Of a DNA stretch of 45,326 nucleotides, positions 10,901 to 16,900 are shown piece after piece (the stretch's first letter is position 1; each line of letters begins with the position of its first letter). The position numbers are program-made. The stretch is from IMG/VR virus record IMGVR_UViG_2778261532_000009, positions 1 through 45,326 of that record; one strand, written 5' to 3'. The stretch is from a virus. Lineage: Duplodnaviria; Heunggongvirae; Uroviricota; Caudoviricetes.

Positions 10901-13900
10901 GGCGCGGGCCATATCTCGCGCGGCTCCGACACGGGCACTGTGTCCAGACCAGGCCAGGTATCTCTGACCAGAGTCATCCTTAGCGCCGTAAATCAATCGA
11001 TGAGTTGCTTCAAAAATCCCTTCCAGGGCGCGAGTTGATAGCTGGCTGGTGGCAGATGGCGCAGCTACGCCATTTTTTCTGACACGGCAAAACAAGTAGT
11101 TATTCGGATCATCAGCCACACCAGAGACAGAAATCCATCGCTCGACCAGTTTAGTTACCCCCAGGCTAAGTGCCTTCTCTACACCCGCGGTACTAACCAG
11201 CGTTTTCGTTCTGCCAATATGGATTAACATTCTCCCACCGTCTGTACGTGAGATATCTTTAACCCTGATCCTGGCAATTTCGGCTATACGTAACAGGGTG
11301 TTATAAGCGATCCCCAGAAATGCCAGATTACGTATATCCTGGCAGCGATCGCTATTTTCCATGAGTGAACGAACCTGGTCGAAATCAGTGCGTTCGAACG
11401 CCAATGCCTGTTTTGCACGTTCACCGGCATCAACGTTTTCTTTTCGAATCCGCCGCATGACCAGTGAAACAGCATTGCTGTCACTTGGTCGTGGCAGCCC
11501 GGACCGACGATGAAGCATGTTTAGCTGGCCCAAATGTTGCTGGATAGTTTTTACTGCCAGACCGCGCGCCTGAAGATATAGAAGATAATCGCGAACATCT
11601 TCAGGTTCTGCGGGAAACCATTTCCGGTTATTCAACTTGCACCATGCCGCCCACGACCGGCAAACGGACAGAAGCATTTTCCAGGTATGCTCAGAAAACG
11701 CCTGGCGATCCCTGAACATGTCCATCAGGTTCTTGCGAACCTCATCACTCGTTGCATCGACCGGTAATGCAGGCAAATTTTGGTGTACGGTCAGTAAATT
11801 GGACATTTAACACTCAGATGATGGTTTTAAGTAAAGTGTACAGGATCGGCTCTGCCTTTACCTGTTTATGGTTCTCGTCATAGAAACGCCAGCGACCGCG
11901 CGTGCGTTCTATTTTCTCTTCACCGAGCGATAATGACAGTTGGCAACTATCACGATCAAACCCTTTTGCCCGCCAGTAACCACGGTTTTTCTCAAGCTCA
12001 AGATGAGTGGACACTTTAGCAGTTGAATATCCCATTTTTCACCTCTGATTGATTGGTGGTGCTAAGTGCGCTACGCGAAATCTGTAGGACTAACACCGTC
12101 AACTTTTCACAGATTTTACGTAGCGCAACCTTGATCAAATGATCAAGTGATCACTATTTGACCTGCTAAGGTATTGAACTGTATGGATTTACAGGTAAAT
12201 TGATCATATTCAATAACCCTTAAGATAACTTCGTATAATGTATGCTATACGAAGTTATCAGGTCCGAAGAGGAGTTTACGTCCAGCTGCGCACAAAAATC
12301 AAGAATTATTAGAGCAATAAGTTTTGAGAGAAAAATCCCACTCCACCAGCTAAAAACTGGATTGTTTTTCATAGTTGTTTGACAATTGCTCTAATAAATT
12401 ATAGTTTTGCCGCCGTTTCGTAATACGACTTTGGATTCACTATTTAATGTGTCTTCAGCGTTGTAGAGCGGCTCAGAAGGAAATGAGCAAACAGGGAAAC
12501 CTTATACAACGGCATTACAGCTATGCATTGCTCATCTTACACACAGCGCAATGTTGTTAGATTACCCCAGCATGGATCATGGGTGAAACAGTAGGTCAGA
12601 GCTTCAGGCTCTGTGTTGTCAATACAGTGAGGCATAATTATGGCTTTCATTCAACCAACCATCGACGACGTTAGACATTGCTCTAACGCTTTATCTGTAG
12701 ACCCTGCCGAAACCGACGCTGCCCGCGCCATTGCTGAACACTACTCAAAGATATCCAATCAGGAGTACCGCATCACCCAAGACGACCTGGATGACCTCAC
12801 TGACACAATCGAATATCTCATGGCAACTAACCAGTTAGACTCACAATAAATGCACTAATAAATCTATTATTTTTGTTTGATCCCTCTATAATATAGGTCA
12901 GTAATGACCGGTTTTCTCAGCCGGGCGTTATTGACCATGTCAATTCTGGAGGAGGATCAATGATAAATTATGTCTACGGCGAACAACTGTACCAGGAGTT
13001 CGTCAGCTTCAGGGATCTCTTTCTAAAAAAAGCTGTTGCACGCGCCCAACACGTTGATGCCGCCAGCGACGGTCGTCCTGTACGCCCGGTTGTCGTTCTA
13101 CCGTTCAAAGAAACAGACAGCATTCAGGCTGAAATTGATAAATGGACTTTAATGGCGCGGGAACTGGAACAGTACCCAGACCTCAATATCCCAAAGACTA
13201 TTTTATATCCTGTGCCTAACATCCTTCGCGGTGTGCGTAAGGTTACGACTTATCAGACAGAAGCTGTGAACAGCGTCAACATGACCGCTGGCCGCATTAT
13301 TCATCTGATTGATAAGGACATTCGCATCCAAAAAAGCGCGGGGATCAATGAGCACAGTGCGAAATACATAGAGAACCTGGAAGCAACAAAAGAGCTAATG
13401 AAGCAGTACCCAGAGGATGAAAAATTCCGTATGCGCGTACACGGCTTTAGCGAAACAATGCTGCGCGTCCACTACATTTCCAGTAGCCCTAACTACAATG
13501 ATGGTAAATCAGTTAGTTACCATGTGCCACTGTGTGGCGTGTTTATCTGCGATGAAACTCTCCGTGATGGAATTATCATCAACGGTGAATTCGAAAAAGC
13601 AAAATTTAGCCTTTATGACTCCATAGAACCGATCATCTGCGACCGCTGGCCGCAAGCAAAAATATATCGCCTGGCAGATATTGAAAATGTAAAAAAACAA
13701 ATTGCCATCACTCGCGAAGAGAAAAAGGTTAAGTCAGCCGCATCAGTTACGCGCAGCCGTAAAACCAAGAAGGGGCAGCCAGTAAACGACAACCCCGAAA
13801 GCGCGCAATAAATTATGCCCGGCATCAACCGGGCATTCTTCCATTATTCAGCCGCCACCGGTTTTAACAAGCCAGCATCGAGCAGTTTACGCGTCAACCA

Positions 13901-16900
13901 CTGCTGGCCTTTACCCGTTAATTGGGGCGTCAGCCGTATCTGGTAGCCATCTTCATCATCCAGCACCACTTCTTTCACCGTGAAATACCCCGCGTTGATG
14001 TACTGCTGGAACGGCGCATTTTTACGTCCACCGGACGCTATCAGGATGCCGTTCTCCCGTAACCAGACAAACAGCGCGTTTTGCTTAAGTCCAACAACCT
14101 TTGCAAAATTCCCAATCAGGATCCCTTTAGCTACTGATACCCGGTCGGCAAAATCGACTTTAAGAGCGGCGGCCACCAGCTGCTGATTTAGCTGGTGGGC
14201 TTTCTGTTCCAGAAGTTGCTTTTGTTCAGCCAGTTCGGCAGCCAGGCGTAGGGCTTCAGGAAGCGTCTGGGGGATTGCGATCGGTTGCTGTTCTTTTTGT
14301 CGGAAGTAGCTGTCTTCCAGTTTTTCAAAGAATGCCCATGCCTGATCGGTTTCGAGCATTTTAGCGTGGCGGGCTGCGCCGCGTTCTGTCCAGAGGGTGA
14401 GTGAGCGAACATTGCGAGCAATTTTTACAGAGTAGTTTAAAGCTACTCTGTGCTTCAACTCGCGCAATGATTCTCCTTCAACTTTGAAAAAGTGCTTCCC
14501 TTCAACAAAGCGTACTTTGTTCTCATGATGATTTTGGCGAATACGGATTGTTTCTGTCCCATACCCTCTAGCAAGAGTCTCGGTTGTCACTACACGCACT
14601 CCCTGCCATTCCAGAACGGGAATTTCATCAGACTGATTCTGAACAACCACCAGCTCCGATTCCTGAACTGAAGGTGCATGAATTTTTTCTAATTTAACGT
14701 TATTTGCTTTCATTCTGTGTGCCTCCTTGCGTGCTTCGGCTGCGACGGTTGCGTAATTCAGATGCCCCTGTTCGAGCAGGTATTCGCGGATATCAGACAA
14801 CAGGATACGGTGAACCGCGTTCTTGTCCTTTCTCCGGTAAAGTTGTTTGGTGATCATGAAGTAGTTGGCAATAACGCCTGGTATATCCCTGGTACTGATA
14901 CAGGCAGTGTGCTGTTCAATTGCCTCGATCATCTCTTCACGGGTGACTAATGACGTTCTCATAGTCCCTCCTGAGCCGAAGCGTTAACAGGGAGGCACCA
15001 GTAACTGAGAGAATTGCGCGAATCGGTAGAAAAGCGGGCAGAGAAAATACAGGGAGCATCCGGAAGCTGAGAACGCGCCTCATCTTCTGTTGGTGCGATA
15101 ACGAAGTGATAGTGACGTTTTTGGCAGGAGTAAAAGCGCCAGATAAATTCAGGATGAGTTGGGGTAGGGATAGTAGCCATATTGGCAGCCTCCTTAGACG
15201 TTGGTATGTAACCACCGCAGAAGAGACCAATCTTGCTGGCGGTGGACTGTACGGAGTTGGCCTTACTGGCGTCCAAGGTAACCAGCCTACCCGAAGGTAG
15301 CCCCATACAGCCCACCATTGTAGAGGTGTGCGTGTACGCCGATACAAAAAAAAAGACGCGAGCGGCGTCTGTATCGCCTTAGACTTAAGCGGGAGGCCAA
15401 TCCCGGCACCCGTTTTAATGAGGTGCCTGATAAGCATAAACCGAAAATGCCTCAAGGCGCAAGAGGTCAGGCTCAATGTAACATCGGTAGTTAAAAAACA
15501 CAATTTATTAGAGCAAATATTCATTCATTAAGCCATGCCAGAGCTTCATCAACCTGCGCTTCGTCTTCGACGCTAAGCACTTCATCCTGGGGAACATAAT
15601 CCGCCAGCATAGCGAAACAATATGTATCCCAATGGTCTGGTGAGTGCAGGTTGAGTTTTTTCTTCATATCCTCCTTACTCATCACCTTCCATTGACCTGC
15701 GGAGTTAATCCCTACAGGGATTTTCGACGCTTCCTCAATAGTTTCATTACCCTTATCCAGTCTCATACGACCAGATTTTACGGCCTCTGCGGCTTGAACG
15801 TTGGCATAAGCACGTTTATCAAAGTACAGGCTCTTATCTTCACGGCTATGCATCTTTTTACCCCAGCGTATACGCTGTACGGTAATACCATAATACTCGT
15901 ACATCAGATCCGCCGTTGCTTTACCCAGGCCATCGCCGTCTATCGCTATGGTGATATTTGGGAATCGCTCAGGATTACATTCTGCGAAAATTTTGGCGGC
16001 AAGCTGCGTTTCTGTAACGTCTGTGTATTCCAGCATTCGATAGTTGATTACACGGCGTTTATTTCGCTGGCCGGACACCATCATGATATTGATAACGGAC
16101 TTATCCCGTCCCGTACCACCAGCAACGTCCACACATGCAAGCCAGCCCCATCCTTTGGCAATCTTGACTTTCCGCCGCGTTGCACGTTCAACCTCATCAC
16201 GTCCAAGAAGGAAGCCATCCTGTGATTTAGGGAATAGGCCGCGTACCTTAATCATGTACATAGGGTTATCACGCCCGCCGTACTCCGCCAGCTTCATTTT
16301 GATAAATGCTGGCGTTACCAACGGTGATTCCTCACTGTTAAGCGTGATCGCCGTATAAACGCCATCAGGGTTACCAGGACGCTTGGCCAGTTTATGGTGA
16401 GTATCGTAGAAATAGCCGCTTGGGCGTGTAGGCTGTGACAGTAATAAGATGCGGTTATCCTGTCCGGTAAGAGCACCAGTGATGATACCGAAAGCTCTAT
16501 CACTGACACCGGAGGCTTCATCGATAATATACAGAAGATGATCTGCGTGTTCACCGGCGAGAGCTTCTTCACTTCCCAGACGAAAGCCCTTCGGTACTAC
16601 AGTCCATACACCTTTACCAGTAACCTCATAGAAAGCGGTTTCTGTCAGAACAAAATAATCAGCAAGCCATGGAAAACGGCTGGTGGCAGTAGCCCAGTTT
16701 ATCTTGATGTACTTGAATATACCGGTCATTACCTGCTGAATTTTGTTCGCAACGATAATGGCGCGGGCACCGGGATACATGATTATGAACAACATGATCA
16801 TGATAGAAGTCATGTCTGATTTCCCGGTACCGTGACCAGACGAAACAGATGTCTTGCTACCCTGTTCCTGCACAGACTCAATAATCAGATCCTGCTGCCA

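Follow-up and report, generated by a model that had tools for sequence, protein, structure and literature searches.

What fills the 1709 bp between the stop codons of c1 and the convergent pacB (positions 13812-15520) in a P1-like phage-plasmid, when the same gap measures 24 bp in P1? The question was raised by IMG/VR virus record IMGVR_UViG_2778261532_000009, assigned to the Caudoviricetes, of which positions 1 to 45,326 were analyzed as one stretch of 45,326 nucleotides (nt), hereafter the window. An earlier note, made from the sequence alone, had proposed an antirepressor-like two-gene module under its own C1 operator at this position. Operator and genes are indeed present, but that description was incomplete, as what had been taken for a leader holds C4 and isrK RNAs recognized by Rfam and the whole forms a full immI-type operon. 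We consider it likely that the insert is an additional, self-contained immI-type operon, comprising two small RNAs, a division inhibitor and an antirepressor, within the immC/pac junction. Its functional steps are read throughout from homology and covariation, and on these grounds the extra module is probably real and functional as an immunity/anti-immunity unit. It is most likely controlled chiefly by a C4 antisense RNA that targets the ribosome-binding site of the short gene, with decoy targets carried by the isrK-type RNA. Read along the minus strand, the elements follow the order C1 operator, two promoter-like sites, isrK-type RNA (a1, b1, terminator), C4 RNA (a′, b′), a2, b2 (over the Shine-Dalgarno sequence, SD), icd, and ant1 with the in-frame ant2:

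15517-15501, minus strand: C1 operator TTTGCTCTAATAAATTG, two mismatches to the consensus ATTGCTCTAATAAATTT, aligned with the annotated P1 Oc4 (Op51)
15475-15503, minus strand: putative C1-controlled promoter TTGTGT-N17-TACATT, aligned to the annotated P1 P2c4/P51a, its -35 element overlapping the 3′ end of the operator
15433-15462, minus strand: putative constitutive promoter TTGCGC-N18-TATGCT, aligned to P1 P1c4/P51b (TTGACC-N17-TATAGT)
15345-15426, minus strand: isrK-type small RNA (Rfam RF01394, match 15426-15349, 60.8 bits against a gathering score of 50)
15400-15394, minus strand: a1, UUGGCCU, in the loop of isrK hairpin 2, complementary to a′
15384-15377, minus strand: b1, GUCUAAGG, single-stranded in the isrK-type RNA, complementary to b′
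15370-15354, minus strand: stem of the intrinsic terminator of the isrK-type RNA, followed by a T9 run (terminator scan)
15322-15235, minus strand: C4 antisense RNA (Rfam RF01695, 75.9 bits against a gathering score of 45)
15278-15270, minus strand: b′, CCUUGGACG, in the loop of C4 hairpin 2
15263-15257, minus strand: a′, AGGCCAA, in a single-stranded stretch of C4 after hairpin 2
15224-15230, minus strand: a2, UUGGUCU, just after C4, pairing with a′ via one G-U
15200-15192, minus strand: b2, CGUCUAAGG, pairing with b′, overlapping the icd-like SD, at the same position as the annotated P1 b2
15195-15189, minus strand: SD AAGGAGG of the icd-like gene
14959-15180, minus strand: icd-like gene, 73 amino acids (aa), ATG at 15180
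13844-14962, minus strand: ant1-like gene, 372 aa, with an Ant1-type N-terminus (residues 1-92), ORF6N (116-202) and KilAC/ANT (260-361)
13844-14713, minus strand: ant2-like in-frame nested product, 289 aa, ATG at 14713-14711 (Met84) behind AAGGAGG at 14728-14722, positioned as P1 ant2

The earlier note was right to place a short open reading frame (ORF) behind a strong ribosome-binding site, AAGGAGG, but its product has 73 rather than 74 aa. This protein matches NCBIfam NF033153 (phage_ICD_like; E = 2.7e-13) and PHROG 1426 (1.2e-45), and is 74% identical to P1 Icd over 43 aa. As had been described, its stop codon overlaps the start of the 372-aa frame (14962..13844, minus strand) as ATGA, and the gene pair converges on c1 (12960-13811, plus strand). 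The proposal that the larger protein is an antirepressor homolog was borne out: it matches PHROG 63 ('anti-repressor Ant') over its full length (7.6e-128) and is 53% identical to P1 Ant1, with ~70% identity over residues 1-92 and ~88% over residues 228-346. The suspected KilA-C-like region corresponds to the Pfam ANT/KilAC domain PF03374 at residues 260-361 (E = 6.3e-29). For the suspected Bro-N-like region, Pfam gave no Bro-N match at E ≤ 0.1; ORF6N (PF10543; residues 116-202, E = 2.5e-19) was found instead. No NCBIfam family was assigned to the 372-aa protein, and a PDB sequence search with it returned chance-level matches only (E ≥ 0.2).

Conservation was followed in a sample of 79 related loci fetched from IMG/VR by their Ant protein, in which C4 copies were located with nhmmer; 56 isrK-type copies were counted, including the window and three reference records. 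The operator (kept as T/CTTGCTCTAATAAATTG), the 73-aa icd and the ATGA overlap are retained in all isrK-type copies surveyed, as is the internal SD-ATG, i.e. the Ant2-type start, in those whose ant frame extends that far. Most encode an Ant of 370-372 aa. The ratio of nonsynonymous to synonymous substitution rates (dN/dS) was 0.13 for icd and 0.25 for ant overall (0.10 in the N-terminal part, 0.32 in the middle and 0.06 in the C-terminal part); both genes are under purifying selection.

Upstream of the gene pair, the C1 operator expected at a distance of ~320 bp was found 321 bp from the icd-like ATG, and we take it as the counterpart of P1 Oc4/Op51 and a predicted C1 binding site. Operator-like sites number 12 in the window, against 0.25 expected by chance. 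The eleven others, each with three or fewer mismatches, lie at 10264-10280, 10741-10757, 12302-12318, 12385-12401, 12849-12865, 27072-27088, 29164-29229, 32843-32859 and 42790-42817, where a pair overlaps in opposite orientation. Such additional sites are consistent with a P1-type C1 regulon. From their alignment to P1, we infer TTGTGT-N17-TACATT and TTGCGC-N18-TATGCT to be the counterparts of P51a and P51b. The second of these agrees with the promoter consensus at 7 of 12 positions, and the start predicted from it (~15426) coincides with the 5′ end of the isrK match. One promoter-like site on the plus strand (15121-15149) was within chance expectation and was dismissed. As pacB ends 3 bp ahead of the operator with no terminator between them, the sequence suggests that late pacAB transcription may run into the module.

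The first RNA of the leader is laid out as hairpin 1, hairpin 2 with a1 in its loop, single-stranded b1 and the intrinsic terminator. In a permissive scan, the Rfam c4-a1b1 model gave a weak match (20.5 bits) to the 5′ half of this element, and c4-a1b1 holds the position of isrK in P1 and in the two other modules of an Escherichia albertii plasmid, pEA15_2. The isrK-type RNA can therefore be read as an a1b1 element with a strong terminator. The C4 RNA has a predicted fold of -41.6 kcal/mol with a′ and b′ both exposed, and the ends annotated in P1 would put the mature species at ~15316-15238. The whole leader is strongly structured (z = -3.76). In the minimum free energy fold of the unprocessed leader transcript, a1/b1 are paired with a′/b′ and the SD is unpaired, a model compatible with the isrK element serving as a decoy. 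Two ORFs of 195 and 119 aa overlapping the leader were read as spurious frames over RNA genes. Leaders occur in two length classes, with 193-195 nt or 213-216 nt from operator to C4; RCS47-type copies have ~21 extra nt between the isrK terminator and C4 (RCS47 locus L002 4221-4264 versus 15323-15348 in the window).

The two exposed C4 segments can be treated as a two-part recognition code (a′ / b′), and the isrK-type copies (n = 56) fall into five such codes:

AGGCCAA / CCUUGGACG: 25 copies, the code of the window
GUUCCAA / CCUUUGAC: 3 copies
GUCUCAA / CCUUUGAC: 8 copies
GUUCCAA / CCUUUUGC: 8 copies
GUCUCAA / CCUUUUGC: 12 copies

In all five, a1, a2, b1 and b2 carry bases matching a′ and b′. 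P1-type copies obey the same pairing rule, combining a′ CUGUCAA or CUGCUAA with five different b′ sequences; P1 itself has CUGUCAA / CACUAAC and P7 has CUGCUAA / CACAAUC, and the rule holds in P7 as well as in a Stx2 phage (GUCCUAA / CCUUGAUUG). The sample contained 15 distinct C4 sequences. Five C4 RNAs aligned with MAFFT did not line up by structure, and nhmmer was therefore used to locate C4 copies in place of a covariance model. That six sites change together over many lineages is strong comparative evidence for pairing.

Predicted duplex energies range from -20 to -23 kcal/mol for cognate pairs, as compared to -10 to -11 kcal/mol for the window C4 on P1-type or P7-like leaders and -4.4 kcal/mol for the P1 C4 on the window leader. 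The heteroimmune phages P1 and P7 are set apart by only two bases in a′ and two in b′; by the same measure, the window module should be orthogonal to both, and its code is predicted not to cross-react with the C4 of either phage. Where a genome contributed two or three modules to the sample, the codes of co-resident modules always differ at one or both sites. This constant difference between residents at one or more of the two recognition sites, together with the combinatorial diversity of codes expected of a recognition arms race, would also suit an alternative in which the C4 RNA is the main useful product, an immunity cassette against the matching ant of incoming P1-like phages, with icd and ant as a mere cis target. 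We regard this as quite improbable: purifying selection acts on ant and icd, and most copies have both genes intact, which an RNA-only function would not require. The alternative also overlaps in part with the immI-type operon that we favor.

A second line of evidence for an immI-type operon comes from comparison with P1 and P7. The P1 record (NC_005856) gives the order Oc4 (Op51), P2c4 (P51a), P1c4 (P51b), a1, b1, c4 (77 nt), a2, b2, icd (73 aa), ant1 and the nested ant2, and the window module aligns to the P1 leader with each element in the same order. Spacing is nearly preserved, with 330 bp in P1 and 337 bp in the window from operator start to the icd ATG, 548 and 555 bp to the ant1 ATG, and 797 and 804 bp to the ant2-type ATG. 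Shared features further include the RF01695 fold of C4, the position of b2 over the icd SD, a 73-aa Icd overlapping the ant1 start, the nested ant2 and homologous Ant ends. The systems differ in location, immI of P1 and P7 being found between sim and kilA-repL and the window module between c1 and pacB, in the a1b1 region, which in the window is isrK-type with a canonical terminator, and in the ORF6N-containing center of Ant and the distinct a′/b′ code. The a1/b1 sites are labeled 'putative' in the P1 record, and a terminator scan called no canonical terminator after a1b1 in P1. The P1 a1b1 region (L087 400-440) does contain a hairpin and T-run, UAUUUUUGUGU, that aligns to the window isrK terminator (15370-15345) and whose loop is too long for the scan; a terminated, short a1b1 RNA in P1 is speculative.

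The nearest functional precedent for the isrK-type element is the isrK-orf45(STnc1160)-anrP locus of the Salmonella prophage Gifsy-1, compared here as described by Hershko-Shalev et al. (2016; PMC4825925). There, some transcription passes the Rho-independent terminator of isrK and continues into a short ORF and the antirepressor gene anrP. This short ORF, whose stop codon overlaps the start of anrP (AUGA), must be translated for anrP to be translated. IsrK, shown in Gifsy-1 to bind Hfq, raised anrP translation ~140-fold when supplied in trans, and a processed ~80-nt RNA (STnc1160) is complementary to IsrK. With the window, this locus shares a terminated isrK RNA, a complementary RNA downstream, a short ORF overlapping the antirepressor start and the antirepressor payload. 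It differs in belonging to a lambdoid prophage without a C1 operator, and in that its short ORF of 45 codons lies over the C4-like RNA and is not a separate 73-aa Icd. The text of PMC4825925 does not mention bacteriophage P1, the c4 repressor or Citron, and leaves the locus unconnected to P1 c4.

Stx-converting lambdoid phages such as Stx2 phage F039 (LC710660) provide a further relative, in which the sequence between the isrK 5′ end and a point ~30 nt inside the first ORF is ~78% identical at the nucleotide level. F039 follows the same a1/b1, a′/b′, a2/b2 rule with its own code, given above, and is without a C1 operator or a separate icd. Its downstream gene encodes 215 aa (L088 2242-2889), a Rha-family regulator in related Stx-phage records. 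This gene opens with the same codons as the window icd (ATGGCTACTATCCCT...) and then diverges, which places a mosaic boundary inside the coding sequence. The window module is itself a mosaic, as the leader stretch is Stx-like (~78%) while the operator-promoter region and the Ant ends are P1-like.

By analogy to these systems, a working cycle can be proposed, and we hold the operon together with the following steps to be the best explanation, with fairly good confidence in the whole. The P1 record (NC_005856) describes C4 as a repressor that acts at a2/b2 on the translation of icd/ant, notes that ant expression apparently depends on icd, and states that Ant1/Ant2 enter a complex with C1. As inferred from immI of P1 and P7, transcripts of the window module would be processed, by RNase P in the immI scheme, to free a C4 of ~79 nt, whose exposed segments would mask the icd ribosome-binding site by pairing at a2 and b2; since translation of ant would be coupled to that of icd, no Ant would be made in the lysogen. 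The resident C4 would likewise silence a same-code module on an incoming phage, conferring superinfection immunity. On the model of Gifsy-1 IsrK, the isrK-type RNA, free or in cis, would mimic the targets, titrate C4 and so set a threshold for icd/ant. A drop in C1, or entry into a cell without a matching C4, would allow the operator-linked promoter to fire, with read-through from the late pacAB operon possibly adding to expression. The Ant1/Ant2-like proteins then made would inactivate C1 and drive or lock in lytic growth. With an a′/b′ code unlike those of P1 and P7, the module would have independent immunity and anti-immunity specificity, and P1-like elements could collect up to three modules with different codes.

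Several observations weigh against this account. The window code has G-U pairs in b1, b2 and a2 where other codes pair perfectly, so that repression could be leakier. Both promoter-like sites are weak, and a consensus scan called no minus-strand promoter in 15430-15520; since neither was called, their assignment as P51a- and P51b-like draws entirely on the alignment to annotated P1 promoters. The window covers 45 kb only, and the genome may also keep a canonical immI outside it. The central third of Ant is unrelated to that of P1 Ant, with ORF6N, a DNA-binding type of domain, in the window and no Pfam domain in P1. This last point would fit a protein that does not act on C1, with RNA control as described above: a product that targets the repressor of another prophage, or a DNA-binding regulator, which would modulate co-resident lambdoid prophages or host genes. 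Such a role agrees with the label 'DNA binding protein Roi' that vB_EcoM-673R5 and JL22 give to the large protein, and with the ~78% identity of the isrK-C4 front end to its counterpart in many Stx phages, where a Rha-like regulator follows. We consider it unlikely, because the N-terminal 92 and C-terminal 120 residues are ~70% and ~88% identical to P1 Ant1 and also the most constrained (dN/dS 0.10 and 0.06), the nested Ant2 start is conserved, and the module carries a C1 operator and adjoins c1.

Also unfavorable is a small number of copies in other genomes in which ant is shortened (60-351 aa). These could be taken as signs of a decaying immI duplicate without present function; alternatively, with Icd annotated as a cell-division inhibitor and KilA-type proteins able to kill the host, of a toxic Icd/KilAC cassette acting in abortive infection. 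Against either stand the co-variation of six RNA recognition sites over five codes, dN/dS values well below 1 and the presence of the insert in roughly 40% of c1-bearing plasmids, and we judge both highly improbable, the abortive-infection role without a search of PADLOC. For the immI-type operon, by comparison, the earlier suggestion of a candidate immunity modulator appears plausible.

With respect to its setting, the window is part of a P1-like phage-plasmid. The genes flanking the insert are 95-99% identical to those of P1, P7 and relatives (C1, 99.6% identical to P1 C1):

10775-11806, minus strand: cre
12640-12849, plus strand: coi
12960-13811, plus strand: c1
13815-13836: hairpin between the convergent c1 and ant genes, 9 pairs, 6 of them G-C
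15521-17005, minus strand: pacB
17005-18198, minus strand: pacA

The hairpin is a probable bidirectional terminator. Similarity to P1 ends precisely at the stop codon of c1 on one side of the insert and at that of pacB on the other, and the suspicion of an insertion relative to P1 and P7 proved correct, given the 24-bp gap in P1. By megablast, the insert was found in RCS47, vB_EcoM-673R5 and JL22 and was absent from P1, P7, SJ46 and phiW39. The copies in RCS47 and JL22, at the same locus, have the code GUCUCAA / CCUUUGAC and an isrK-C4 spacer 21 nt longer than that of the window. Read on the minus strand, the insert has a short direct repeat on either side, TGAATGAATA at the pacB stop (15521-15530) and TGAATAAT at the ant stop (13838-13850), where P1 has TGAATAA at the pacB stop; it may be microhomology from acquisition of the insert, or chance.

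The insert is widespread. In PLSDB, c1 was found in 702 plasmids, of which 290 (~40%) hold at least 80% of the insert; the same gene pair is also present in pTZ20_1P. Nearly all isrK-type copies lie between pacB and c1. Besides the canonical immI site adjoining kilA-repL, a second insertion hot spot exists at mat-ref/cre, where P1-type a1b1-C4 leaders are combined with ORF6N Ant proteins. Modules at that site were seen in pEA15_2 (L005 40479-42348), where Ant has 465 aa, and in L019, L024, L034, L038, L070 and L076-L078, where it has about 350-372 aa. The window gave no second C4 match and is thus without a mat-ref/cre module, while pEA15_2 carries all three modules, each with its own code. 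A few loci look like recombinants of paralogous modules: L061 has an isrK-type leader adjoining kilA-repL, L084, which lacks c1, combines pacB with an isrK-type leader and a P1-like Ant, L065 contains a pair of C4 copies separated by 1.5 kb, the match of phage phi456 to the window ends inside ant, and L036 is of the same kind. Recombination seems to use the repeated ant genes as substrates.

Part of this locus was already known. RCS47 annotates 'ant' at the c1-pacB site, and Venturini et al. (2019; PMC6906374) mention the insertion, with RCS47, in one sentence, the only mention that literature searches on extra immI modules in P1-like plasmids brought up. In hundreds of plasmids, PGAP names the two products 'host cell division inhibitor Icd-like protein' and 'phage antirepressor KilAC domain-containing protein'. 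No RNA is annotated at the c1-pacB locus in RCS47, pTZ20_1P, vB_EcoM-673R5, JL22 or the PLSDB records, and we found no description of the RNAs of this locus, the code diversity or the isrK-a1b1 equivalence in the searchable literature, itself incomplete for the classic P1 papers. Within the immI family, the feature is a further member that occupies a new site and has a new specificity.

Elsewhere, the window has several other features. Positions 1-10200 are not P1 backbone and match thousands of unrelated plasmids, P1-like similarity starting at ~10208, just past cre. This segment contains:

275-1135: blaTEM
1318-5044 and 6541-10175: two Tn3-family transposase/resolvase sets
5304-5373: RNA-OUT (Rfam match)
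5381-6238: IS3-family transposase

A complete type I restriction-modification system (HsdM, HsdS, HsdR) occupies 20857-26823, downstream of lpa and a DUF968 gene, in an arrangement shared with some P1-like plasmids, e.g. pEA15_2. Three minus-strand tRNA genes (40382-40454, 41982-42054 and 42060-42132) lie between genes for a DnaB-type helicase and a Dam/Dcm-type methylase.

For the P1 family as a whole, we tentatively offer a broader proposal, to which we give a little less than even confidence. In P1-family phage-plasmids, immI-type modules would occupy three fixed sites (canonical immI, mat-ref/cre and c1-pacB), each element carrying one to three of them, with two-site codes that are shuffled combinatorially and never coincide within a genome, a natural set of orthogonal antisense repressors and targets arising from an arms race between immunity and anti-immunity. 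The P1 a1/b1 sites would be the equivalent of Gifsy-1 IsrK, a decoy that titrates C4. If true, this equivalence would join two literatures that do not cite each other, and it lends the P1 a1/b1 sites a testable role. The co-varying a′/b′ codes, for their part, offer ready material for testing how antisense specificity arises from two short kissing contacts. As ~40% of c1-bearing plasmids hold the extra unit, P1 and P7 are not typical models of immunity within the family to which they belong. If functional as inferred, the module would alter which P1-like phages superinfect or induce one another, with a bearing on the spread of resistance-carrying phage-plasmids, of which the window, with its blaTEM, is itself an example.

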